Assembly: GCA_020722575.1 (NCBI GenBank)
Contig: DYKN01000013.1
Location: forward strand, 5,649 to 69,648
Origin: Rikenella microfusus
Lineage (GTDB): Bacteria > Bacteroidota > Bacteroidia > Bacteroidales > VadinHA17
DNA length: 64,000 bases
Direction: 5' to 3'
Position numbers and translations under genes: made by a program. Numbering within the stretch: position 1 is the first letter of the stretch; every line of letters starts with the position of its first letter. This document shows, one piece after another, positions 36,660 to 49,388 of the stretch. Below the pieces are notes generated by a model. The model made no database searches. It was given only the letters and a program-made list of their open reading frames with translations, and was not told the origin of the DNA.

Positions 36660-37259
36660 CTAGAACTTGACCTTGACCGCTTCCCTTTCCGCTTGGACAG
36701 TCACTTCGAAGAGTACAGCTGCTTTGAAACCAAACATTCCTGAAAATATGTTATTGGGGAAAACCTCACAGGCATTATTATATGCCATCACAGAATCATT
36801 ATAAGCTTGTCTTGAAAAGGAGATTTTATTCTCTGTTGAAGTCAACTCTTCCATCAACTGCTGTATGGTCTGGTTGGCTTTTAGATCAGGATATTGTTCC
36901 GCTAAAGCGAAAAATTTCCCGACTGCGCCAGTAAGCATAGCTTCTGCTCCCACCATCCCTTTCATGGCATTTTCATCCATGGGATTTTCTGCAGCCTTCT
37001 GATTTGCAGAAACCGCTGAATTCCTTGCTGAAATCACGGCTTCCAAAGTCTGGCGTTCATGTGAAAGATATGCTTTTGCTGATTCAACCAGATTCGGAAT
37101 CAGGTCATAACGTCTTTTAAGTTGGACATCAATCTGAGCAAATGAATTCTTAAACCTGTTTCGTAATGTGACAAGTCTGTTATAGATACCTATTAAGGTA
37201 AATATTAAAATCAGAACAATAACACCTAAAATAATCAGTGTCATATGACTACCTCCCAA
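36660..37259 (-). CDS. lemA: LemA family protein
   Basis: QIDVQLKRRYDLIPNLV, EQYPDLKAN, TENKI. The start may be the ATG about 15 nt downstream. Confidence 0.96.
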   Translation of the reverse strand: MGGSHMTLIILGVIVLILIFTLIGIYNRLVTLRNRFKNSFAQIDVQLKRRYDLIPNLVESAKAYLSHERQTLEAVISARNSAVSANQKAAENPMDENAMKGMVGAEAMLTGAVGKFFALAEQYPDLKANQTIQQLMEELTSTENKISFSRQAYNDSVMAYNNACEVFPNNIFSGMFGFKAAVLFEVTVQAEREAVKVKF

Positions 37260-37284
37260 ACACCTGAAAAGTCTCTTTTTATCC

Positions 37285-38208
37285 TTATTTGACTTGCATC
37301 CTGGAAATAGCAGTCAAGGCCGCATCACGAATATCGGCTTTCATATTTTGATTGGTCAGTTCTGTCAGATAGGGCATATATTTTACATTGTATGTCTGCC
37401 CTACTAATTCAATCAACGCAACAGGAATGTCTGTCCCTGAAAACAAGGATATGATATAATTATCCATCTCACTGTTTTTATATTTTGGGAGTGAAAAAGC
37501 GGTTCTTACACATTCAAACTTGATCTCACTATCTTGTGTTGCAGTAAAAAGGGATTCAACTTCTGCTTGAAGCTTCTTGATCTTGTTTTTTTCTATCTCA
37601 TCAAGGGCGGTCATAATCCTAACCTTGTTATCACTGTTGAGATATTCCTTAAGCACATTGACTTTTCCATTAAGGATGAACTGGCATGTCCTGTAATTAC
37701 GGATGATCCTATCTGAAACGGTTGGATCTAACTCACCTTCAATCAACATCGCAATCGTATCATAATACTTTACAAACTGGAGCAATGGTGTCTTCATAGC
37801 TCCAAGAGGGACACTTTTATCCTCATACAATGCTCTACCTAATCCAACATTGATCATTTCACCAAGAAAACCAAGTTTTAGAAGTTGCAGATCAATATCG
37901 TTTCCAGAAAATTCATCATTTATCTTATTATCATATTTTGTATAGATTGAACGCAACGAAACTGCAAAAGGAGTATCATCCTCACGCTTTATTTCCATAT
38001 CAAATCTTTCTCGTGATGACTGCATTCCTTTGCGGAAATCTTCAATAGAGGTTGATTCAAGAACCGGATAAACTGGTTCTAAAAAATGAGAAATTTTGAT
38101 AGCAAATGTCTGTGAAATGAAAAACCACATTGAAAAATAGGTCAAAGAAAGAAAAACTATCACACTACCAAAAATGATAATAGGCTTTTTCATAATGACT
38201 CCTTCCAT
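37285..38208 (-). CDS. Hypothetical membrane-anchored protein with HEAT-like helical C-terminus
   Basis: Single N-terminal TM; VRIMTALDEI and IRDAALTAI helices. Confidence 0.6.
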   Translation of the reverse strand: MEGVIMKKPIIIFGSVIVFLSLTYFSMWFFISQTFAIKISHFLEPVYPVLESTSIEDFRKGMQSSRERFDMEIKREDDTPFAVSLRSIYTKYDNKINDEFSGNDIDLQLLKLGFLGEMINVGLGRALYEDKSVPLGAMKTPLLQFVKYYDTIAMLIEGELDPTVSDRIIRNYRTCQFILNGKVNVLKEYLNSDNKVRIMTALDEIEKNKIKKLQAEVESLFTATQDSEIKFECVRTAFSLPKYKNSEMDNYIISLFSGTDIPVALIELVGQTYNVKYMPYLTELTNQNMKADIRDAALTAISRMQVK

Positions 38209-38289
38209 ATTGAATAATGCTGACCTGTCAATTTATTGGGTTAATGCTAAAAAGTCAAAAAAAACCGATTTGATCCCATATCCAAGAAA

Positions 38290-38511
38290 CTACTTCGTGG
38301 TCATGGTAAAAACGCCATCCCAATCAGCAGGAGGAGGAGTCGCAATAAGCTGGTCACACCGTTCAATATACAGTTTTGAAGGCCCATCATCAGGTATCGA
38401 TTCCAATGCTTTTTGGAAATACGTCTTAGCCTCTTGAAACTGTTTTGCCTTATAAAGCTCTAATCCTTTGTTGTAACTCTCAAGGACAGCAGTCATTTTG
38501 GGATTTGGCAT
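38290..38511 (-). CDS. Stand-alone TPR mini-protein resembling the C-terminal tail of adenylate/guanylate cyclases
   Basis: 73 aa from ATG 38511 (GGAGGG SD): YNKGLELYK..F.EA...F.KAL...PDDGPSKLYIERC...PPPADWDGVFTMTTK. Confidence 0.8.
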   Translation of the reverse strand: MPNPKMTAVLESYNKGLELYKAKQFQEAKTYFQKALESIPDDGPSKLYIERCDQLIATPPPADWDGVFTMTTK

Positions 38512-38524
38512 GAAACCCTCCTGT

Positions 38525-39034
38525 TCAATAAAAAATATATTTTTTCCATTTCTCCATATCCCGTCCAATATAACGGACAATATGAAGATAAATGATCTTA
38601 TGGGGCATCTCCGGTTTCTTAATAAGCTTCATACCGGCCTCTTTGGGAAGCTTATCTCCTTTCCGATTATTGCACCGTCTACAGCAGGTAACCACATTTT
38701 CCCAAACTGTGGGCCCTCCTGATGCTTTGGGTATGATATGATCCATTGTCAAATCCGATGTTGCGAACTCCTTGCCACAATATTGACATATATGCTTATC
38801 TCTTAAAAGGACATTCCTTCTTGTCAGATGGATCGTCTTTTTAGGGATATAGATATATTTTAACAGCCTGATGACTGTTGGAATTTGGAACTGGTTATTG
38901 ACGCTATGTATAAGTACATTTGTAGATTCCTCTACAACTGCAACTCCTTTTAATACCAATACGACAGCACGACGCAAGGAACAAATGTGCACAGCTTCGT
39001 AAGTGTTATTTAGAACCAGAACACTTTTGTCCAT
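38525..39034 (-). CDS. Small McrA-like HNH endonuclease
   Basis: VLVLNNTYEA, RD...CQYCG, DHIIP, WENVVTCCRRCNNRK. Confidence 0.93.
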   Translation of the reverse strand: MDKSVLVLNNTYEAVHICSLRRAVVLVLKGVAVVEESTNVLIHSVNNQFQIPTVIRLLKYIYIPKKTIHLTRRNVLLRDKHICQYCGKEFATSDLTMDHIIPKASGGPTVWENVVTCCRRCNNRKGDKLPKEAGMKLIKKPEMPHKIIYLHIVRYIGRDMEKWKKYIFY

Positions 39035-39151
39035 TTGATAAAGATACTAAAAGGCAAGTGGATAATCAAGTTTTGGCGTTTTCCCCCATGTTAAAATGAA
39101 GGGAAATGACGGTTCTCGTCCATCTAAAGAACAGGTGATTTATCCAACAGT

Positions 39152-40024
39152 TTAGGATTGAACCACTTTCATCTGGTTAAAAAACCTGACAAGGTCATTA
39201 ATGGGATCTCTGTCTGTCAGTAACTCACATGATTTAATGTTTTTTCTGAGAAGGGCATCCTTGTGCCTGTTAAAAAAGGAGGAAAGCGATTTTTCTTCAT
39301 TCTTAACATCCCGAAAAGGATGAAGGGAAACATCATAATCTTCCTCCAAATCAGCCAAACTTGCTGCAGAAAGATTTGACAATGTTTTTTCAGCAGGATC
39401 CGCTACAAAAAAAACAAAAACATCATGCCTTTTACTTAATAGATATAAAGCATGCTCATAATTATCAACAATCATGTCTGAAAGTATGAATATTATGGAA
39501 CGTTTCCTTTGGACTTTCTGGATGAATTCTATGGCATTTGTAAGTTTCGATTTACCAGATATAGGAGGATAAACAAGGATATCCCTGATAACCTGAAATA
39601 TATGATCCCTCTTTTTCTGAGGTCTGTAATATTTTTCAACTTTTTCAGAAAATAATGTTAGCCCCACCTTATCACCATTTTTCAAAGCTGCCAATGAAAT
39701 GAGGGCAGCCGTCTCAACAGCCAACTCCGATTTCAGCCGTCCTTTGGTACCAAATTTCAATGAATGGCTTACATCTAAAAGGATATTTATTGTAAGCTCC
39801 CGTTCTTCCATGAATTTTTTTGTATACAGATGGTTCGACCGGGCAGTAACATTCCAATCAATATTTTTTATATCATCCCCGTATTGATACTCCCGTACTT
39901 CATCAAATTCCATGCCTTGCCCACGGAATATGCTCTTATAACGTCCTGAAAAGATATTTTGAGCGGCTTTCCTGCTTCGTATCTCTATGAGCCTAACTTT
40001 TTTATCAAGAGCGCTTAAGTCCAA
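39152..40024 (-). CDS. DUF58 (VWA-like MoxR partner)
   Basis: GMEFDEVREYQYGDD..IDWNVTAR, DVSHS, SD. Confidence 0.93.
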   Translation of the reverse strand: MDLSALDKKVRLIEIRSRKAAQNIFSGRYKSIFRGQGMEFDEVREYQYGDDIKNIDWNVTARSNHLYTKKFMEERELTINILLDVSHSLKFGTKGRLKSELAVETAALISLAALKNGDKVGLTLFSEKVEKYYRPQKKRDHIFQVIRDILVYPPISGKSKLTNAIEFIQKVQRKRSIIFILSDMIVDNYEHALYLLSKRHDVFVFFVADPAEKTLSNLSAASLADLEEDYDVSLHPFRDVKNEEKSLSSFFNRHKDALLRKNIKSCELLTDRDPINDLVRFFNQMKVVQS

Positions 40025-40034
40025 AAGACACCTC

Positions 40035-41024
40035 TCAGGGGACTTCTAATGTATCAAAAATTTTCTTAATGATATCATCTGTTGTCATCCCCTCAGCATC
40101 AGCCTCGTATGTCAGGATAAGTCGATGCCGAAGAACATCTGCACCAATGGATCTTATATCTTCGGGGACAACATATCCTCTATGTTTGATGAAGGCATGG
40201 GCTTTCGAGGCAGTCGTCAATGACAGAGAAGCGCGTGGAGAACAACCAAAAGCAATATATGGCTTAAGTTCAGCAAGTCCGAAGGATTCAGGGTTTCGTG
40301 TAGCCATAACAATATCAAGTATGTACTCAATCACCTTGTCATCGATATATAATTCATTGATAGTATCACGAGCTGATAACAATACTTTGGGAGTGATTAC
40401 TGATGCTGTTTTTTTTACATTTCCCGTGGTATACATCCCAATGATTTTTTTCTCTTCATCTCTTTCAGGGTAAGTGACTTTTATCTTCATCATGAACCTA
40501 TCGAGTTGCGCTTCTGGCAAAGGATAAGTCCCCTCATGCTCAATAGGATTTTGGGTAGCTAACACAAGGAAGGGCTCATCCAATTTGAAAGTCTGATCAC
40601 CTAAAGTGACCTGTTTTTCCTGCATACATTCTAAAAGTGCACTTTGGACTTTCGCAGGTGCGCGGTTAATTTCATCTGCAAGAATGATATTTGAGAAAAT
40701 AGGGCCTCTCCTGGTCACAAATTCACTCGTTTTCGGATTATATATCAATGTCCCTAAAACATCTGCTGGAAGAAGATCCGGAGTAAACTGAATCCGTTTA
40801 AAATCAGTTTTAACGCAGGAGGCAAAAGTACGTACAGTTAATGTTTTAGCCAACCCAGGAAGCCCTTCAACAAGGATATGCCCACCTGTCAGAATTCCTA
40901 CCAACATTTTTTCAATAAATATCTTCTGCCCAACAACGGTTTGACCGATTTCCTCTAATAGTTCTTCAATAAACGCACTCTCTTTTTTTATTCGTTCATT
41001 CATAGCTTTGATGGATGGATCCAT
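40035..41024 (-). CDS. moxR: MoxR family AAA+ ATPase
   Basis: GLPGLAKT, RIQFTPDLLPAD, DEINRAPAKVQSALLE, EGTYPLPEAQLDRF. Confidence 0.96.
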   Translation of the reverse strand: MDPSIKAMNERIKKESAFIEELLEEIGQTVVGQKIFIEKMLVGILTGGHILVEGLPGLAKTLTVRTFASCVKTDFKRIQFTPDLLPADVLGTLIYNPKTSEFVTRRGPIFSNIILADEINRAPAKVQSALLECMQEKQVTLGDQTFKLDEPFLVLATQNPIEHEGTYPLPEAQLDRFMMKIKVTYPERDEEKKIIGMYTTGNVKKTASVITPKVLLSARDTINELYIDDKVIEYILDIVMATRNPESFGLAELKPYIAFGCSPRASLSLTTASKAHAFIKHRGYVVPEDIRSIGADVLRHRLILTYEADAEGMTTDDIIKKIFDTLEVP

Positions 41025-41107
41025 GTCTATCTCCTATTTACTGAAATTACTAAATATAAATATAGTATAGTGCAAAAAATGAAAAATTAATGAAAGAAAA
41101 AGAGGAA

Positions 41108-42112
41108 TTAACGAAGAAAAATAAGAAATACCACTGTTAATAACAAGGCGATTCCACCTATAAGCCATAAATAGATGGCAGAAGATGACTTACCAGAAGA
41201 AGCTGATGAAGATGTGCTGAATTTTACAGAAGAACTTGATGATGAATTTCCACCAGCCTGTTTTTTAACATTTCGAGAATCCAACAAGGGATCATATCGT
41301 TTCAATTTGACTTGTTCTTGTTCTGTGGCTTTGCCAAAAATTCCCGGACCTATTTCAACTAACAAATTATACTCTTTCGGAGAACTCGATGAGGAACGCA
41401 CTTCTTTGACAACTGCGGGAACAGGGATGACCTCTCCACTTTCGTTTCTAGCTCCCAGCAAATCAATGAAGTATTGCTCTTTTTGTGTCCTTCCTGCTAT
41501 CTTTACCACAATTTGATCACCAGGCTTGACGTCATATATTGGAATTCCACTGATTGGCCCAATGACAAGTCCTACATTTAAAACGACGCCCCCCTCATCA
41601 ACTTGAAAGGTTACGCTCTCCTGTACAGATGCTGAAGATGGAGCTGGGTCACTGGCCTTGACAGATTGGTCCCTTTCTGATTTTACAGCATCTATCGCAT
41701 CTTTTGTAACTGTCTCTTTTTCTAACTGGAGTGATATGTTCTTTTCTGACAGGATTTTTTCAATCAAAGATTGTATGGTATGTTCAGTTTTTGAAAAATT
41801 TTTTGAATCAAAATCATCTATAAACAGTTCGACGATATCTGTTAAAAATGACGATACAAAAAGCGCTTGAAAATCATTGGATAGACTTGTTGAAATCTCC
41901 CCATTAAATCTCATCTGCGCTATGATATCTTCAAACTTTTCCCAACTTTGAGCCGGATCATGATCATACATTGAACTGAAATGGGAAGCAATAATAGACA
42001 TCTTGTCTATGTTCTTCGAAGTCCTATCTATAAAAACAATGAAAATACCAAATGTATTTGTTGTCAGCGCTTTGAATCGCCCTTTTAAGATATGAATTTG
42101 ATTCGCAGCCAT
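41108..42112 (-). CDS. Hypothetical protein with Ser-rich linker and C-terminal TM anchor
   Basis: Long ORF; GPISGIPIYDVKPGDQI motif (reminiscent of DUF4899, uncertain); SSSSSS linker; terminal hydrophobic helix. Confidence 0.65.
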   Translation of the reverse strand: MAANQIHILKGRFKALTTNTFGIFIVFIDRTSKNIDKMSIIASHFSSMYDHDPAQSWEKFEDIIAQMRFNGEISTSLSNDFQALFVSSFLTDIVELFIDDFDSKNFSKTEHTIQSLIEKILSEKNISLQLEKETVTKDAIDAVKSERDQSVKASDPAPSSASVQESVTFQVDEGGVVLNVGLVIGPISGIPIYDVKPGDQIVVKIAGRTQKEQYFIDLLGARNESGEVIPVPAVVKEVRSSSSSPKEYNLLVEIGPGIFGKATEQEQVKLKRYDPLLDSRNVKKQAGGNSSSSSSVKFSTSSSASSGKSSSAIYLWLIGGIALLLTVVFLIFLR

Positions 42113-42193: not shown

Positions 42194-44230
42194 CTAATTT
42201 TCTGTTTTTTGTACATCAAGCTTCATTCTGCATTTATTAGCACTATTTATCAACTTGGGGTTCTGAGGGTCTATTTTTAGCCCCCTTTCCCACTCTTTTA
42301 ACGCATTTACATAGTCTCCATTCATATAAAAACTTACACCCTTCAGATAAAACTGGTTAACCTGAATCTCCTTGTCACTCATTCGTCCTTGGTCAGTGAG
42401 TACTGATGTCTCTTCTTGATATTTTTTTCTAAGGTTTATCTTATTCAGATTCATGATGGCTTTTAACCGATATGTATTACGTGGTGAATTGTCTTGTAAG
42501 ACTTTTTCCCACTCCTTTTTAGCCAAGTCGATTTTGCCTTCAGAATAATAGACAAGCCCCTTTTCATAGGCTTGACGAAGTGTTTCAAGGGGAATAACGA
42601 TAGCTGGGGGATTCAGTCTCTCTTCTATCTTTTCTAGATAATCCTCAACATTCTTATACCCCTGTCGGATCGACATGACCAACGTAAATGATTTTTTTGA
42701 ATTCGCATAATCCCGGTTATGATATTGGAGGATTCCAGTATCATAATGGCTTTGAAGAAATGATTCCACTTTTTCCGGTTCCAGCATCAGAGTATTCTTT
42801 ACAAGCAAGTCTCTTGACAATTTGTTATTTGGAAACAATAATAATATCTTCTCTAGATAAGACATTGATGTTTGATAGTCCCCTTTATTGAAAAATGCGA
42901 TTGAATCAAAGTAAAGTTTCATGACGATTTCATAATAGGGTGAATCATCATCAATCTCTTCCTGACTTCGTGAAAAGAGCACTTCTTTTGCCTTATCCAG
43001 GTATTCCTTCGCATATATGTTTTCTGGATCTAAATCAAGACACCTGCTCAATTCAAATATGGCATTCTTATACTCACCTACCTGATAAAAAGTTATACCG
43101 CTGTTCAAGTATTCAAGAATCTTGTCCTGTTGTTCCTGTATTTTTTTGGCTCGTTCCTCGTTTATCCTGTCTTGTATGAGTGTAAGATACTTGTTAACGT
43201 CCTTATAATTGCTGTTCAATGAAATAACATTCATGAAATTTTCACGGCTTTTCTGGTAATTTCTAGCATTATAACTTATGACACCTTGAGAATAAAACCC
43301 TTCCAGTTGTGCTCGGAAGATCTCCTGCTGCTTTAAAGAATCATAATGTGCCAATATTCTTGCCTTATAATCAGAAGCGATATCGTCCTGCGGATTTAAT
43401 ACAAGGATCTCATTGAATGCATCCAATGATTCCCCATACTTCTGTTCATTGAACAATCTGACAGCATTGGACATCATCAGTGTCATTTTTTGAAGCTGGA
43501 GCATTTCACTACGTAAGCGGTTTGCTTGTTGCAACAAATCACGAGCCTCCTGAAAATCCGGTGTTAATCCAAGCACATAATTCAACTCTTCAATTGCAAA
43601 ATCCGGTTTCCTCTGTTCAAGAAAAGCCCGTCCCTGTTCAAGATGACGGTCAATCTCCGCCAGCCTTTCCTGTTCATCGATCAACGCTTTGAGTTTATGG
43701 ACCTTTTCCATAACTGTAATATTGTCAGGAGCTAATACAAGCACTGTCCTATATTTTTCAAGTGCTGCAAGATATTCCTTCTGCTGATAAAGACGATCAC
43801 CTTCTTCTTCACGTTTTTGTACAAGGATTTCCTTGTTAATACGTTCAAGCTGTTTTTTCGATTTTTCTATATATTCCTTTGCTGTTGCATCATAAGGTGT
43901 TTCCTGCAAAACACTGTTAAAAATGACAATCGCTTCTGGATAATTTTTTTCTTTATAATAGTCCAGACCTTTCATAAGTAGTCTCTGTTTTGAAAGGATC
44001 CTGTCATAGGCTTTTCTATAATAGTTTTTCAGTTTTATATCTACATATCCATAGTTATCAATAAGCTGATCCCATTCCTGTACTGCCTTGATATATTCCT
44101 TGTTATTAAAATATTCCAGACCTTTAATAAAAATAGCATTGATTTGGGATCTGTCAGGTTCATTCTGCATGGCTGATAGTACAAACGCGGTTAGTATCAT
44201 AAATATGGTTAAAAGTGACTTATAGTTCAT
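42194..44230 (-). CDS. Large exported multi-TPR protein
   Basis: Signal peptide; many (Y/F)xxGxxYYxxxxYxxAxxxW/F TPR units joined by coiled segments; start overlaps the upstream stop (ATGA). Confidence 0.88.
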   Translation of the reverse strand: MNYKSLLTIFMILTAFVLSAMQNEPDRSQINAIFIKGLEYFNNKEYIKAVQEWDQLIDNYGYVDIKLKNYYRKAYDRILSKQRLLMKGLDYYKEKNYPEAIVIFNSVLQETPYDATAKEYIEKSKKQLERINKEILVQKREEEGDRLYQQKEYLAALEKYRTVLVLAPDNITVMEKVHKLKALIDEQERLAEIDRHLEQGRAFLEQRKPDFAIEELNYVLGLTPDFQEARDLLQQANRLRSEMLQLQKMTLMMSNAVRLFNEQKYGESLDAFNEILVLNPQDDIASDYKARILAHYDSLKQQEIFRAQLEGFYSQGVISYNARNYQKSRENFMNVISLNSNYKDVNKYLTLIQDRINEERAKKIQEQQDKILEYLNSGITFYQVGEYKNAIFELSRCLDLDPENIYAKEYLDKAKEVLFSRSQEEIDDDSPYYEIVMKLYFDSIAFFNKGDYQTSMSYLEKILLLFPNNKLSRDLLVKNTLMLEPEKVESFLQSHYDTGILQYHNRDYANSKKSFTLVMSIRQGYKNVEDYLEKIEERLNPPAIVIPLETLRQAYEKGLVYYSEGKIDLAKKEWEKVLQDNSPRNTYRLKAIMNLNKINLRKKYQEETSVLTDQGRMSDKEIQVNQFYLKGVSFYMNGDYVNALKEWERGLKIDPQNPKLINSANKCRMKLDVQKTEN

Positions 44231-45435
44231 TTTTTAATATTCTTGAGTATATCTTCGGCGTCTTTTACCTTTTTCTGAATAACCTTGTTTTCAGGATCAA
44301 TGGTCAAAGCTTTATTCCATTCCAGTATGGCCTTCTCAAATTCTTCCTGGACGAAATAGGACAATCCTTTATAATAATGAAGTTCTATCAACTTCTGTTG
44401 GTTTGGGTTTAATCCACTGATCGTCTCAAAGAGATCGAATTTAGTATTGACAGAGAAATTGTTTACAGAATTGAATACTGCATAAGGTGAATAGACATAA
44501 TCCACATGTGTATCAAAACCTTTAAACCGATAACGGATCCCTACTCCTGCAGTAAAAAAATTGAGATCATATCCAAGTTTAAACCCACATCGGACAAATA
44601 CAAGGTCTCTAAAAACATATTCTACTCCAGCGTTCAGCCTATAATCAAGGTCAATAACACTTCTGATATTATAGAGGTATTTGTTCAGATCCAGTGTCGC
44701 ATAAAGGCTATGATGTTGGTTTCCAGTGCCTTCCATTCCTATCAAAACAGGATAATAAAGACCTGCCTTTAATTTCAGAGGAACGATATCCGTATATGCT
44801 TTTGTTGATATGTTTTGCAGGGCTATCCCCACCTTGACATTGTTCAAAGATAACCATTTATTTGGGAAATATGGAATTTTGAGGTTCTTAACAAAAAACT
44901 GGGTTCCTAAATCAGCTGCAAAAGCATTGATCTTCAAATCATTGATTCCTAAGACACCCCATTTCAGCTGCATCCCTACTGAATACTGTTTCAACCGCAT
45001 AGCATAGGCAAGATTGATGACTGAACTTCCAAAATCCACAGTACCATCAGGGTAGCCATATTTGTCATAATTAATGAAAGGTGCTAAATGAAGGAATGTC
45101 CAACTACCTCCCATTGTACCTTTCACCCTACCAAATTTCACTGGCTGGGCATACGCCAGGTATTCTACTGAAGTATCATCAAACCAGTCGAGATGTACAA
45201 AGGCTGCCTGATTCCTGTTCAATGGAACAAGTCCTGCGGGATTGGAGGTCAGTCCCGTCACGTCTTCAGCAGCTGCACAATAAGCGCCTCCTAACCCATT
45301 CACCCTGCTATTCAATTCAAATTGGAATAGGTTCATACCGTCTGTACCGGCAAAATCCGTAAGACTGCCAGTCGCAAAAAGTTGTGGTAAACATGTTAGT
45401 AAAACGGTTATGTAGGCGAGCGTTAAAAGTCTCAT
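44227..45435 (-). CDS. PorV/PorQ-like (UPF0164/FadL-type) outer-membrane beta-barrel with C-terminal TPR
   Basis: Signal peptide; RVNGLGGAY.A.AED..L..NPAGL hatch motif; amphipathic strands (AGVEY, GVGIRY, VDYVY); terminal TPR. Confidence 0.85.
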   Translation of the reverse strand: MRLLTLAYITVLLTCLPQLFATGSLTDFAGTDGMNLFQFELNSRVNGLGGAYCAAAEDVTGLTSNPAGLVPLNRNQAAFVHLDWFDDTSVEYLAYAQPVKFGRVKGTMGGSWTFLHLAPFINYDKYGYPDGTVDFGSSVINLAYAMRLKQYSVGMQLKWGVLGINDLKINAFAADLGTQFFVKNLKIPYFPNKWLSLNNVKVGIALQNISTKAYTDIVPLKLKAGLYYPVLIGMEGTGNQHHSLYATLDLNKYLYNIRSVIDLDYRLNAGVEYVFRDLVFVRCGFKLGYDLNFFTAGVGIRYRFKGFDTHVDYVYSPYAVFNSVNNFSVNTKFDLFETISGLNPNQQKLIELHYYKGLSYFVQEEFEKAILEWNKALTIDPENKVIQKKVKDAEDILKNIKK

Positions 45436-46745
45436 TTGATGATAATCACCTTCCTAACTTGATTGACATCTTTAGCTCGAATTGTAACAAAATACATACC
45501 GACAGCAACAGTCATTCCAGCATGGTTTTTACCATCCCAAAGAATTGGTCCGTATTTACCTGGTTCTTTCACACCTTCATCATACCGTCTGACAAGATCA
45601 CCCTTGAGGTCATAGATATCAATTCGTACACGTCCTTTTTTCACAACCTCATAAAGAATATTTATGTTCTGATCAATACGCAAATCAAGAATAGTTGGGA
45701 ATACATTGAAATTTTGACCTTGGTCTGGCCGTTGTTTAATCTGGTACATGTAAGGTGTTCCAGCATTGTCATAAACAACATGATCTACTGAAACTATGAA
45801 TTTGACAGTTTCACCATCCTTGAATTCAGAATCATTGGCGGGTATCAGACCTTGCCAAGTCATACCGTTCCAAGACAGTTTAACAGCACGATCGTTCATA
45901 TTTGGTCCATAAGCACCATCTGGATTCTCTGAGACATCATAATATATCCAGACATTGTCTGCATCTTTCGGGTCTCTATCAAGTGTTACATTCACAAGAA
46001 TATCCGAAGCATTTAGGAACTGACTTCCTCCAAAATCCGTTATCAATTTCATTCCATCGTTCGCAGTTACAGCCTTCACAGCATTTGTAGGAGCATAAGT
46101 TATGATTGTGTTTGTAATCCATCGGACATAATTACTCATTACGTTCGAACGGACTGTCTTCACCTCGATAACAACCCTGTTGGTAATGCCGATGGGAGCA
46201 GAAGGCGGCACACTCACCTGGAGGAAACAGGTGAAGAGGTCGCCTTCGCCCAATGCCGGCGTATTGGTGATCCTGATATCACCAGCGTCAAAGGTTCCAT
46301 TGTCATTCGTATCACCATAGACAGCAGTCGTCATGTTCGTAACCATATTGGATACGACACGCACGCGGAATATGTCTGAATAATTGTTGGATGACTGGAT
46401 ATCAAAGGGAAGTGAAGAGACAGAACCTATGACAGCATAAGAGGTTGTCGAGGTTACGTTGAACTGAACGAAATCTGAAACGACATTGGTAGCATAGGCC
46501 GATGTCGAATACCCCGTACCAGCAAGGTTTGAATAAACCGCAGTTACGGTATTCGTCAGACCTGTTCCGGAAGGAGTCTTAGCCATTAGTGCGGAGTCCG
46601 CCATGAGTAATGCCAGAAGGAACATTACACCTGTCACACTCGGACGTAACCGTCCAAATATCCAGGACTTCACTGAGGAGCCAAGATTGAATAAACTGGT
46701 TGCAAGGGCTTCAGTGACTATGGGAATACGTTTAAGTATACCCAT
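45432..46745 (-). CDS. Secreted Ig-like protein with C-terminal FlgD-Ig/T9SS type-A-like sorting domain
   Basis: Extended signal peptide; TNTVTAVY N-terminal segment; DTNDNGTFDAGD Ca-binding-like loop; C-terminal IYDLKGDLVR..WDGKN..G.Y....KVIIIK. Confidence 0.82.
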   Translation of the reverse strand: MGILKRIPIVTEALATSLFNLGSSVKSWIFGRLRPSVTGVMFLLALLMADSALMAKTPSGTGLTNTVTAVYSNLAGTGYSTSAYATNVVSDFVQFNVTSTTSYAVIGSVSSLPFDIQSSNNYSDIFRVRVVSNMVTNMTTAVYGDTNDNGTFDAGDIRITNTPALGEGDLFTCFLQVSVPPSAPIGITNRVVIEVKTVRSNVMSNYVRWITNTIITYAPTNAVKAVTANDGMKLITDFGGSQFLNASDILVNVTLDRDPKDADNVWIYYDVSENPDGAYGPNMNDRAVKLSWNGMTWQGLIPANDSEFKDGETVKFIVSVDHVVYDNAGTPYMYQIKQRPDQGQNFNVFPTILDLRIDQNINILYEVVKKGRVRIDIYDLKGDLVRRYDEGVKEPGKYGPILWDGKNHAGMTVAVGMYFVTIRAKDVNQVRKVIIIK

Positions 46746-46942
46746 GAACTCTCACCTTTGGTTTTAGATTATGTCAGGAAAGTGCATTATCATGGGGAAA
46801 GGGAATAACACTGGTACTACTGTTATAGTAAGATTCATAAATAATAAATCTACTTATAGTCTTGGATAAAAATGCGAGTATCAAAAAATGTTATTGTGGC
46901 AGATACAAATGCAAGTAAAGTGTATGAACTCCCTTATGTTCC

Positions 46943-46962
46943 CCGGATAAACAACTATCCGG
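46943..46962 (-). terminator. Stem-loop in the 3' region of the DUF11 gene (partial terminator or stabiliser)
   Basis: CCGGATAG-TTGT-TTATCCGG hairpin without a strong U tract; small hairpins nearby. Confidence 0.45.
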
Positions 46963-46995
46963 ACAAAGTCATGAAATCTCCTAAGTTTTTAGGTA

Positions 46996-48057
46996 TTATT
47001 TCACTCGGACCTTGTACATAAGGGTGCCTTTTGCGCTTCCAGGGATATTGGAGCTATAACTGAAAACTACAGAGCCTGAATTTGCGGAACCAGTCAAACC
47101 ATAGTTTTTAGCTAAAGATTTAATTGGTGTTGAGCCATCATCAGCAAGGACTTTTCCAGCATCAAAAGCAGTCTTATATGATATGAAATAGTCAGATGTT
47201 ATCTTCACATCATTGGTATATGCGAGCGATCCGGAAACAAAGTCAAAGACTGTTGTATTGATGGGATCAGAGAAACTGAGATGCTTGACAAAACCAGATC
47301 CGGCATTGGTCCATGTGATTACATAGACAATTTCTGAACCTGGAACAACATCTTTCCAGTGGGCGCCTGCAGCCAGAGCCATGAAAGAGGCAGAGTTGGT
47401 AACTTCCGATCTCTTTGAAATCACTATGCTCGGTGCCTGAACTATAGCAATAGCAATTCCATTTGTGATGAAATCACGTCCACCAAAAATGGTTGTGCCG
47501 TTCATGCTGGTATAGGCTGTCAGACCGGAGAGAGCACCATAGACACTGTTATAGACACCTGCATTGCTGATCTGTGATCCCCAAATGTTGGTTGAAGATT
47601 CGCCATCAACTGCAGCAGCATCAGCTCTCATATAAAGATAAAAAGTCTGGAAATCATCTTCAGCAAGAGTGAAGGATTTGAAAGCTCCACCACTTGTACT
47701 GACATTTGTATAGAAATTGTAGTACCAAGAATGAGTACCAACAGTAGCAATCCTGTAGTTGGACAATGCAATGACCACAGAAGTGTTACCACGGTTGGTA
47801 ACAGACATCATAAATGTTGTTCCTGCACCAGGAGCAACATATTTTACGGCATAATTGCTATAATCTGACTTCAGACCATAGATGGCATTGACTGTATTTG
47901 TTTCATAGGCCTTATTTGAATAAGGTGTATTCCCCAAATTGGAATAAATGGCTGTTACAGTATTTGTAACACCAACTCCTGCAGCGGTTCCAGAGGCATG
48001 CAATGCCATCGGAATAAATAGAAAAAGCGCCATAAGCGCGGTAATGATTCTTTTCAT
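46996..48057 (-). CDS. Secreted DUF11-containing Ig-fold protein, candidate major fibre subunit
   Basis: AAGGAG SD before ATG 48057; Sec signal MKRIITALMALFLFIPMALHA; DUF11 signature IVISK...VVPGSEIVYVITWTNAG...FSDP; ends LMYKVRVK. Confidence 0.85.
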   Translation of the reverse strand: MKRIITALMALFLFIPMALHASGTAAGVGVTNTVTAIYSNLGNTPYSNKAYETNTVNAIYGLKSDYSNYAVKYVAPGAGTTFMMSVTNRGNTSVVIALSNYRIATVGTHSWYYNFYTNVSTSGGAFKSFTLAEDDFQTFYLYMRADAAAVDGESSTNIWGSQISNAGVYNSVYGALSGLTAYTSMNGTTIFGGRDFITNGIAIAIVQAPSIVISKRSEVTNSASFMALAAGAHWKDVVPGSEIVYVITWTNAGSGFVKHLSFSDPINTTVFDFVSGSLAYTNDVKITSDYFISYKTAFDAGKVLADDGSTPIKSLAKNYGLTGSANSGSVVFSYSSNIPGSAKGTLMYKVRVK

Positions 48058-48249
48058 GACTGACTCCTTGTTTTTATTTTTTTGTGAAATGTCGTAAATC
48101 TCGTTCCTCTTCAGATGTTTCTCTTTACTTTTCATTTTGATGTACCTCTTATTGATTTTTTTTCAGGTTCGGAATCGGTGGTCAACCTTTATGACCTTGC
48201 AACCTCCTTAGTTTCAGAATATGGCCAAGCAGAATCCTATCACCTCCTT

Positions 48250-49359
48250 TTATGGAAAAATCTTAATCTCATGTATTTGGATAAAATTCCATTTGCCGTG
48301 TTTTGAAAAATACTTGGACTTTATAGCTGTTAACCTCACATAACGGCCTTCTTTTGTTGGAAACTGGATCTCCTGCACTTTAACAGGTGTGCCGGACATG
48401 TAAGTCCGAGGGACCTTATCCGCATCAAGTTGGGAAGCAATAGTCTTCCATACCTTTAAATCCTCACTGATTTCAACATTATATTCGGTGCTATAAGCCA
48501 AAGCACGCCAGATAACAATGACTTTGGAGATCTTCGTCTTTTTACCAAGATCTATTATAATCTGTTGGTTGTTGGAACGAATATCGCCAGAAACGGACAT
48601 CCCTTTGAAATAGTCCACTCGACCATCAGTAATACGCTGAAGGGAATTCGGACTCATATCAAAAAGTCCATCTTCATAAACATAATTGGTAAAAGTCCCT
48701 GATACGGTTTTTCCCAAGGCAAGATTATCTTCCAATGTCGAAAAAGACTTGATTTCTGTATTGTTAGTAATATTGTCTTTGTTCACTATCTGGATGAAAT
48801 AGTAATATCTACTTGAAGGTTTTAATCCTGAAATAAGAAACTCACCAGAAGCCGTTTCTTCCATGGGTATCACATTACGATTAATCTCACCCTCTTTGAC
48901 ATAAATAAGTGATGATAGGACTGCTGCGTTCGCCTCCCACTTGATACGAACATATTCCTTACTTTGGCTTGATACTTCATTCTTTGTGATAACTGGAAGT
49001 GGATTCCCCGCTGTTAAAAAGGTCTTAATCCCTGATTTTACAACTACAGGCTTGTTTGCTTTATACTGGAAATTACAAGATATTTCGTAATAATAAACTG
49101 TCCCTTTTTGAAGATTATTGAGAAGAATCTGATGGTTGATTGCTTCACCAATACTAAATGCTTGGTTATGTAATCGAGCCGAATCTTCTCCATAGGCTAC
49201 ACTTCCAGTGGAAAGTTGGTCTGTTTTCCACTTGATAATAACATAATTTTCAGTGATATTGGTCACCACTGAATAAATCAACTTGTCCGCATTTAAATAT
49301 GATGCAAATACAAATGCCAGTATATATAGAATAAATGCGGTTCTTACGAGCTTGGCCAT
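48250..49359 (-). CDS. Secreted protein with two FN3-like domains and an F5/8 (discoidin) domain
   Basis: IKWKTD..STGSVAYG..H..LL.NL..GTVYYY (two copies), NLALGK, IIIDLG, GRYVRL, IHEIKIF. The GAGGTG SD favours ATG 49359. Confidence 0.85.
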   Translation of the reverse strand: MAKLVRTAFILYILAFVFASYLNADKLIYSVVTNITENYVIIKWKTDQLSTGSVAYGEDSARLHNQAFSIGEAINHQILLNNLQKGTVYYYEISCNFQYKANKPVVVKSGIKTFLTAGNPLPVITKNEVSSQSKEYVRIKWEANAAVLSSLIYVKEGEINRNVIPMEETASGEFLISGLKPSSRYYYFIQIVNKDNITNNTEIKSFSTLEDNLALGKTVSGTFTNYVYEDGLFDMSPNSLQRITDGRVDYFKGMSVSGDIRSNNQQIIIDLGKKTKISKVIVIWRALAYSTEYNVEISEDLKVWKTIASQLDADKVPRTYMSGTPVKVQEIQFPTKEGRYVRLTAIKSKYFSKHGKWNFIQIHEIKIFP

Positions 49360-49388
49360 ACTCATAATCACCTCACATAACTAAAACA

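Follow-up and report, generated by a model that had tools for sequence, protein, structure and literature searches.

In a 64,000-nt window of the Rikenella microfusus assembly GCA_020722575.1 (contig DYKN01000013.1), two consecutive genes encode proteins, here called A and B, in which asparagine is directly preceded by serine or threonine far more often than the amino-acid composition predicts. Coordinates refer to this window, the whole stretch of DNA analysed, unless another sequence is named; the genes of A and B and of the two proteins encoded after them, C and D, all lie on the minus strand. The excess of S/T-N pairs (TN and SN) is a selected, protein-level signature. It marks one small group of beta-sandwich 'fibre' modules, namely the N-terminal modules (N-modules) of A and B, the DUF11-like C-terminal domain (C-domain) of A, and the repeats of about 140 amino acids (aa) in two giant proteins encoded on another contig. 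The Thr-Asn signal is accounted for by no known motif, and no description of the pair or of the gene cassette A-B-C was found in the literature searched. The explanation we favour, which we judge to stand about evenly between right and wrong, is that the pairs, without modification, serve one lineage of DUF11/NEW3-like fibre modules as a code for structure and assembly.

Excess and conservation of the S/T-N pairs

In mature A, 15 of the 24 Asn residues follow Ser or Thr, when shuffled sequences gave a mean of 5.4 (standard deviation 2.0) and about 1 in 20000 shuffles reached 15. In B the pair accounts for 13 of the 16 Asn of the N-module, residues 56-223 (shuffle mean 4.1, standard deviation 1.7; 13 reached in 0/20000 shuffles), and for none of the 16 Asn of the C-terminal module (C-module), residues 224-437, where 1.1 would be expected. 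These are exactly the counts given in a preliminary description of this DNA, which had added that S/T content alone does not obviously explain so sharp a split; shuffles that keep the composition almost never reach the counts, in agreement with that point. When the shuffling was confined to blocks of 10, 20 or 40 residues, so that local composition was kept, the observed count was reached in 0/3000 runs for each block size. The reverse pair, N-[ST], was unenriched, with 8 cases vs 5.4 expected in A and 3 vs 4.1 in the N-module of B. The signal is mainly one of TN: A contains 9 TN vs 2.5 expected and 6 SN vs 3.1, and TN exceeds expectation 3.6-fold in A and 2.9-fold in B.

Different Thr codons are used in the TN pairs, two of them in A, three in B and all four in each giant, and their proportions are close to overall use, which places the cause at the level of the protein. 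A repeated DNA hexamer or a codon-pair effect was ruled out as the cause, since Thr and Asn codons combine as overall use predicts. That the excess is an artefact, arising from composition, local S/T/N-rich patches, a repeated hexamer or shared repeat ancestry, is hardly credible. The modules are indeed S/T/N-rich (S+T fraction 0.23-0.26), and with paralogous N-modules in A and B and internally repetitive giants the counts are not independent events; the shuffles, the unenriched reverse pair and the codon usage nevertheless speak against it, as do the divergence of the giants and the conservation of TN described below.

Across the genome the two pairs are slightly rarer than expected, with odds of 0.83 for SN and 0.85 for TN among 2680 proteins from open reading frames (ORFs). 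The comparison of secreted with cytoplasmic proteins that had been proposed earlier revealed no general difference, the TN ratio being 0.77-0.78 in the signal-peptide-like, membrane and cytoplasm-like classes alike, as assigned by a crude custom classifier. In a binomial ranking of 2294 proteins, A was third and B fourth, and the first two ranks were held by the two giants, which are type IX secretion system (T9SS) cargo proteins. Among the neighbours of A and B the share of Asn in S/T-N pairs is 1/29 in C, 2/48 in D and 4/25 in the F5/8-type-C protein encoded upstream of A. The preliminary description had confined the enrichment to putative fibre modules; the split within the locus agrees with this, but the restriction does not hold for the genome, in which the two giants show the stronger excess.

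The giants (3786 and 4153 aa) are encoded side by side and consist of 22-23 tandem Ig-like domains (19-23 on the widest count) of about 140 aa, each starting with P-D-[LIV], with C-terminal domains (CTDs) of T9SS type. Their TN excess is the strongest in the genome, at 111 pairs vs 30.3 expected in the 3786-aa protein and 112 vs 35.0 in the 4153-aa protein. SN is at expectation in both, and VN (12 vs 26.4 and 7 vs 22.9 expected) and IN (17 vs 30.9 and 7 vs 23.2) are depleted. Identity is about 23% between the two proteins and about 20% between their repeats, values that argue against common repeat ancestry as the source of the counts. Profile comparison of the repeat using hhalign gave a probability of 30% against the B family and of 1.4% against the A family, and no homology is claimed. 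The CTD of B is most similar to those of the giants, and no other ORF of the genome matches this subtype at E<1e-3. Orthologues of the giants, at about 35% identity, retain the TN excess (113 vs 31.8 and 105 vs 31.4 expected), which a 23%-identical relative lacks (7 vs 10.9). An 875-aa protein with FlgD_ig and OmpA domains is encoded just upstream of the giants.

The excess is a property of the families and not of the single proteins. In the A family (7 sequences, 39-59% identity) 106 of 226 Asn are in S/T-N pairs vs 42.9 expected, and 79% of the pairs fall in columns common to at least half of the sequences. Among 23 full-length members of the B family (20-70% identity), the N-modules have 230 such Asn out of 443 (93.7 expected) and the C-modules 40 out of 328 (40.3 expected), so the sharp split seen in B is family-wide. 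In a set of ten A sequences, made up of the seven family members and three metagenome homologues, N58, S65-N66, T224-N225, T276-N277, K241 and D290 are invariant (10/10), and the motifs VTNRGN and WTNAGSG are conserved in the family. When 400 genomes of the phylum were searched with the B N-module, only 6 gave matches, all of them weak. A locus search with a smaller B alignment returned 33 loci that were nearly all matched through the CTD only and were not used.

Between the giants and their orthologues, TN remains TN in 52/100 and 48/100 cases vs 12.7% and 11.8% of all dipeptides, which makes it the best-conserved dipeptide, and SN is its commonest replacement. Asn is retained in 59-69% of cases within TN vs 32-36% elsewhere. 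For the Thr of TN, replacement by Ser was seen in 10-15% of cases and replacement by Val or Ile in no more than about 5%; where the Asn is kept, T or S is kept with it in 59 of 65 cases. On these alignments the pair sites are under purifying selection, and the hydroxyl and the amide behave as one selected unit.

Position in the fold and the modelled A-B complex

For the residue two positions before the Asn (-2), the hydrophobic fraction is 0.76 in A-family pairs (baseline 0.34) and 0.58 in those of the B family (baseline 0.38). At +2 it is moderate (0.45-0.49), and positions +1 and +3 are not hydrophobic. This pattern places the Asn in the hydrophobic row of a beta-strand and the hydroxyl residue on the opposite face. 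In the model of B, which has a mean predicted local distance difference test score (pLDDT) of 82.3, 8 of the 13 S/T-N Asn are at most 2 residues from a strand end according to our own reading of the DSSP string. The monomer model of A is poor (mean pLDDT 58.9), falling below 50 over residues 40-98, the hairpin region. In the repeats of the giants, the commonest TN column (column 37, occupied in 31/83 domains) stands at the opening of a strand in which the hydrophobic row runs up to the canonical N-x-G Asn; 31% of all TN fall in the top five columns, and the preferred columns are each filled in 20-37% of the domains.

The B N-module matched Atlas clusters labelled DUF11/NPCBM_assoc (DUF11/NEW3), which themselves name no family, with template modelling (TM) scores of 0.71-0.83. 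VIA gave only generic Ig-like folds (Z 10-11), the matches beginning at residue 90-95, and Foldseek against the PDB only generic tandem Ig-like matches. A profile of the A family found nothing in the PDB at E<=1.

A and B are homologous over their first approximately 200 residues (hhalign probability 98.6%, E 8e-16), with 48% identity over 58 aa in the hairpin region. Within the shared part, two N-terminal strands form a hairpin separate from the Ig-like sandwich. One metagenome contig, at 41% identity, keeps the genes in the order A, B, PorV-like barrel with TPR, and in a second contig A is again followed by B; overall the loci are 41-44% identical. In gene order, A, B and the PorV-like barrel C form a conserved cassette.

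A complex of A (residues 48-379) and B (56-235) was modelled with scores of 0.80, 0.78 and 0.80 in three runs, when the best of three controls scored 0.00. Of 157 complexes with solved structures 116 attained that mark, as did 2 of 215 mismatched pairs, a rough calibration since our own alignments were used. The runs had at least 92% of contacts in common, and the pLDDT of the partner was at least 82. In the predicted interface, B 56-93 lies against A 237-243 and 281-293, the two stretches by which the C-domain of A would accept the hairpin, and A 286-290 pairs with B 71-67. No PDB chain is related in sequence to A, which makes recall of a solved complex unlikely, though possible at the level of the fold. 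The model supports binding of A to B without showing it, and the contact of the B hairpin with A is a modelled one and not a measured one. By homology, the hairpin of A is likewise a presumed donor element. K241 (about 47413-47415) and D290 (about 47266-47268) of A touch the partner hairpin in the model, with a salt bridge or a covalent lock as candidate roles. Lys-Asn isopeptide cross-links, considered because these two residues are invariant and touch the hairpin, are an improbable reason for the Asn residues: they could explain at most 1-2 of them, and the contacts listed for the model pair K241 with residues 67, 83 and 85, not with an Asn.

A structural surface code for exposed domains had been raised in the preliminary description. 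Of the two interpretations offered there it is the better supported: the positional conservation, the strand pattern and the joining of modules by hairpin insertion in the complex model are in its favour, and lead to the following scheme. The hydroxyl residue would lie on one face of a strand and the Asn on the other, in the hydrophobic row and often near the strand end, where the Thr/Ser hydroxyl and the Asn amide may bond backbone groups. The pairs would thereby hold the strands in register, close off the hydrophobic rows and leave the edges of the strands soluble before docking. Docking would consist in insertion of the N-terminal hairpin, with its 3 pairs in B or 4 in A, into the C-domain of an A subunit. 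Polymerisation of A on A would then give a head-to-tail fibre begun on B, which has the hairpin but lacks an acceptor domain of A type. B itself would be held at the cell surface through its T9SS-type CTD and the PorV-like barrel C.

Several observations weigh against this structural code. The modelled interface includes only 4 of the 13 S/T-N Asn of B and 1 of the 15 of A. In the C-module of B the Asn residues are as near to strand ends (10/16 by the same reading of the DSSP string), which means that the preceding residue, not the position, distinguishes the pairs. The 409 TN of the 83 giant repeats (4.9 per domain) are found in as many as 65 of the 141 match columns, so that no single site of the fold is involved, and their canonical N-x-G Asn follows K, Q, R or E, with T in only 2/83 domains. 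Conservation specific to the hydroxyl and the coupled loss of T and N are equally expected of a modification sequon. Comparable proteins, moreover, show no excess. The 19 other T9SS CTD proteins of the genome have 69 S/T-N vs 109 expected among 722 Asn. In 85 large proteins with a C-module of B type (600 aa or more, from B's 150 best relatives, matched mostly through the C-module), TN occurs 619 times vs 817 expected. True DUF11 repeats, from 30 loci in 80 genomes of the same phylum, have 260 TN vs 268 expected, and the five pilins of the Escherichia coli K-12 fim operon have 10 TN vs 6.8 expected and 12 S/T-N vs 12.2. With other beta-sandwich surface proteins lacking the excess, a purely fold-driven rule would have to be special to this lineage.

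From the control sets it follows that proteins do not show the excess just by being exported, by being Ig-like surface proteins, by having DUF11 or by being donor-strand pilins. Three broader candidates were rejected accordingly. The excess is not the mere T-N-x-G hallmark of DUF11, as is seen from the true DUF11 repeats and from the giants, whose N-x-G Asn rarely follows T. That it is common to all big Ig-like T9SS cargo is not supported by the CTD proteins and the large C-module relatives, and it is not general to donor-strand pilins, being absent from the E. coli K-12 type 1 pilins.

The pairs might instead form a binding surface, for polysaccharide or lipopolysaccharide, for water or ice, for a mineral or an ion, or as a zip between the chains of a bundle. 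Strand faces of T-x-T type are abundant, for example on the first hairpin strand of A and B, the giants resemble rod-like multi-domain T9SS cargo, and some pairs do lie within the modelled A-B interface. Most, however, lie outside it, the Asn is in the hydrophobic row rather than the polar one, N-T and T-x-N are unenriched, and no ligand-binding family matched over these modules. We consider a binding surface decidedly improbable.

Glycosylation as a competing explanation

The sequence hydrophobic-T/S-N could also be a new sequon, at which a periplasmic enzyme would modify the hydroxyl (O-glycosylation) or the Asn and so produce a densely decorated fibre surface. We regard this as unlikely, yet as a serious rival, because the hydroxyl-amide unit is conserved although its sites shift from one paralogous domain to another; between orthologues the sites persist, and glycan sites often behave likewise. 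The retention or loss of T and N as a unit, and the conserved hydroxyl, with Thr going to Ser and seldom to Val or Ile, are what would be expected of a sequon. The structurally fixed N-x-G Asn of the giants avoids a preceding T. B and the giants, the three TN-rich proteins that bear a CTD, have one CTD subtype and may use one export route. Two strong TMEM260-like genes for glycosyltransferases of the GT-C type were also found in the genome (Table 1).

When the preliminary description raised a non-canonical glycosylation motif, it suggested looking for oligosaccharyltransferase-like genes. No gene of STT3/PglB type was found in this genome, which is 97.8% complete: PF02516 gave 0 matches, when four archaeal control genomes were matched. 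No GT41 gene was found in the genome either. Known motifs are not enriched, N-x-S/T having z values of -0.7 to +0.5 in A, the B N-module and the giants, and D(S/T)(A/I/L/V/M/T) being absent from mature A and the B N-module and occurring 9-11 times vs 11-15 expected in the giants. [ST]-x-N is at or under expectation in these proteins. The motifs printed for the phylum in the portions of two sources available to us are D(S/T)(A/I/L/V/M/T) and N-X-S/T, without T/S-N (PMC11611037, PMC8550257). No glycosyltransferase gene adjoins the A/B locus or that of the giants. Genes of TMEM260 type are common, one being present in Bacteroides thetaiotaomicron, the search control, whereas the TN excess is rare. 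TN is avoided no more by other exported proteins than by cytoplasmic ones, with a ratio of 0.77 in the signal-like and the cytoplasm-like class. The Asn stands in register with hydrophobic residues, and the canonical Asn of the DUF11 hairpin belong, in the A family, to T/S-N pairs that are nearly invariant. The earlier sequon proposal thus has no direct support, and what speaks for it are the co-retention of T and N, the shifting sites and the two TMEM260-like genes.

The nearest known parallel for such a modification is found in animals. In the part of the source available, a mammalian member of the TMEM260 family is described as O-mannosylating Thr on the B-strands of Ig-like IPT domains; the TMEM260/TMTC1-4 pathway targets conserved Thr/Ser on strands of beta-sandwiches, but it belongs to eukaryotes, and a T-N determinant is not described there (PMC10214176). 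A bolder proposal combines this with the fibre: a GT-C enzyme, for which the TMEM260-like genes are candidates, would glycosylate the hydroxyl on the strands of a T9SS-linked fibre of a kind not described before, densely decorated and built by hairpin donation, with A assembled on B and held by the PorV-like barrel, as a bacterial counterpart of animal IPT/cadherin O-mannosylation. This we think quite improbable. The glycosylation motifs known from Bacteroidota, including N-X-S/T in CTDs of Cytophaga hutchinsonii, are likewise short, centred on S/T or N, and located on exported or T9SS proteins, as far as the accessible text of PMC11611037 goes; the difference here is that T/S stands directly before N and follows a hydrophobic residue instead of Asp.

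Further glycosylation-related ORFs were noted in the genome. The TMEM260-like copy on C44 is about 2 kb from an ORF resembling Wzy_C/O-antigen ligase (C44:29706-30521), and Wzy_C matches occur at three places of the genome away from the A/B locus. PMT_2 matches were sub-threshold only. One of them is the sole match of a 495-aa ORF (L076:7540-9027, minus strand, on C26 of this genome), a GT-C mannosyltransferase-like assignment at 20-23 bits vs a cut-off of 26.1; this ORF has no NCBIfam match and no sequence relative in the PDB. The gene order on C26 is ruvA, sprA, gcvH and the 495-aa ORF, which is thus two genes downstream of sprA.

Organisation of the locus and comparison with known systems

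The features of the cassette and the related genes found elsewhere in the genome are collected in Table 1.

Table 1. Coordinates of the genes, modules and genome-wide relatives discussed; positions are those of the window except where contigs (C) or loci (L) of the same genome are given.
Feature	Position	Strand	Remarks
Protein A	46996..48135	-	379 aa as ORF called; secreted, DUF11-like; putative fibre subunit
A N-terminal hairpin	47878..47991	-	approximately residues 49-86; 4 S/T-N: N58, N66, N74, N80
A N-module	47428..47994	-	residues 48-236; hairpin and CARDB/NEW3-like sandwich; 11/17 Asn in S/T-N
A C-domain	46999..47427	-	residues 237-379; DUF11-like; 4/7 Asn in S/T-N
Protein B	45432..46745	-	437 aa; A-type N-module, then Ig-like domains and T9SS-type CTD
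B N-module	46077..46580	-	residues 56-223; hairpin 56-93 and PapD/MG/FixG-like sandwich 91-220
B N-terminal hairpin	46467..46580	-	residues 56-93; N65, N73, N87; predicted interface with A C-domain in complex model
B C-module	45435..46076	-	residues 224-437; residues 342-437 FlgD_ig/T9SS CTD-like domain
Protein C	44227..45435	-	PorV/PorQ-family outer-membrane barrel with C-terminal TPR
Protein D	42194..44230	-	678-aa TPR protein; overlaps end of C
TMEM260-like gene 1	C195:4592-5122		PF11028, 261 bits; 1088-aa ORF
TMEM260-like gene 2	C44:27092-27622		PF11028, 244 bits; 1043-aa ORF
Giant 1	C162:15713-27073 (locus L002:713-12073)	-	3786 aa
Giant 2	C162:3239-15700 (locus L001:3239-15700)	-	4153 aa

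Protein A has a signal peptide, and its mature part begins at residue 48 (base 47994). Its only family signal is TIGR01451 (DUF11) at 22 bits, under the cut-off of 24, and no Pfam family matched at E<=0.1. The DUF11 label that A had received in the preliminary description is therefore borne out in part only, through PF01345, which is present in 3 of 6 database homologues. Homologues start near Met27, and the called start of A (residues 1-26, 48058-48135) is probably too early unless the leader is unusual. In B, similarly, about 50 predicted-helical residues precede a signal-peptide-like stretch (residues 1-53, 46587-46745), which points to an early start or an unusual leader; the leader of about 50 residues is also present in a 70%-identical homologue.

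The N-module of B ends in PTNAV (residue 223), beside base 46080. A loop at residues 145-156 (46278-46313) is conserved in the family with the consensus Y-x-D-x-N-x-N-G-x-x-D, and presumably resembles a calcium-binding loop. The FlgD_ig match of B (PF13860) is at 29.2 bits, above the cut-off of 27. Against TIGR04183, the type A CTD of the T9SS (cut-off 23), B scored 20.5-20.6 bits, and 23.4 with neighbouring in-frame matches. In structure, its CTD aligns to that of PorZ with Z 9.6 and a root-mean-square deviation of 2.8 over 86 residues. A has no detected T9SS CTD, being absent from the 22 CTD matches of the genome.

Protein C passes the cut-off of 90 for NF033709 (113.3 bits over residues 32-333) and is far under the PorV and PorQ equivalog cut-offs, at 27.7 vs 250 and 48.8 vs 220. 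The translocon of the T9SS is encoded in the genome (SprA, TIGR04189, 2697 bits). Whether D belongs to the cassette is uncertain, another gene following C in locus L080.

The block 46001-48000 has a G+C of 0.424, vs approximately 0.35-0.40 elsewhere in the window, a value in keeping with the richness of A and B in Thr, Ala, Gly and Val, and is the sole block with a positive GC skew. Upstream of A, at 48250-49371 (minus strand), is the gene of a secreted protein whose domains are fn3-like/purple-acid-phosphatase-N-like and, for sugar binding, of F5/8 type C (discoidin). The region 36660-42112, downstream of the TPR gene, contains in this order a 334-aa ORF, a MoxR-type AAA ATPase, DUF58/VWA, an HNH endonuclease, a 307-aa ORF and LemA, the 334- and 307-aa ORFs being unannotated. 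The combination of MoxR, DUF58/VWA and TPR is one that we take to resemble a Bat-like (aerotolerance) cluster, and protein D matches the Leptospira BatC TPR model, under its cut-off.

Among known systems, DUF11/NEW3/CARDB-like repeats resemble the C-domain of A through the near-threshold match, and A has the T-N-x-G hairpin at T113-N114 and T276-N277. The differences are that true DUF11 repeats lack the TN excess and that A has an additional N-terminal hairpin. Neither A nor B passes the curated DUF11 cut-offs, and a six-frame PF01345 search of the genome gave 0 matches.

Subunits of type V pili are lipoprotein precursors, which A and B probably are not. In donor-strand fibres (Fim, and type V FimA/Mfa1) an N-terminal extension completes or augments the beta-sandwich of the next subunit, as it would in our model, although the hairpin that would act as donor here has two strands and about 35 residues. 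In Pfam and NCBIfam, A, B, C, D and the upstream gene matched no chaperone, usher or Fimbrial/pilin family. A distinct basal subunit, as proposed here for B, is a further likeness, FimB and Mfa2 being named as anchor subunits of type V pili in the part of the source available (PMC8512630).

With T9SS cargo and PorV barrels the locus shares the FlgD_ig/Por_Secre_tail-like end of B, the PorV/PorQ-family gene that follows it and the presence of SprA; barrel C differs by its C-terminal TPR and its dedication to this cassette. The giants, compared by description, are strings of Ig-like domains with a T9SS-type CTD, as is the grappling-hook protein GhpA, for which a TN excess is not described in the available portion of the preprint (bioRxiv 10.1101/2025.08.19.671072).

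A small set of putative surface-fibre proteins is thus marked by one dipeptide, whose enrichment is about 3-fold and whose conservation is about four times that of the average. If the pairs are a glycosylation sequon, they would point to a new protein glycosylation system in Bacteroidota-related lineages and may provide a substrate for the widespread bacterial TMEM260-like enzymes. If they are structural, they would offer a simple sequence rule by which self-assembling beta-sandwich fibres may be found or engineered, and would point to a new route of fibre building on the T9SS/PorV platform.

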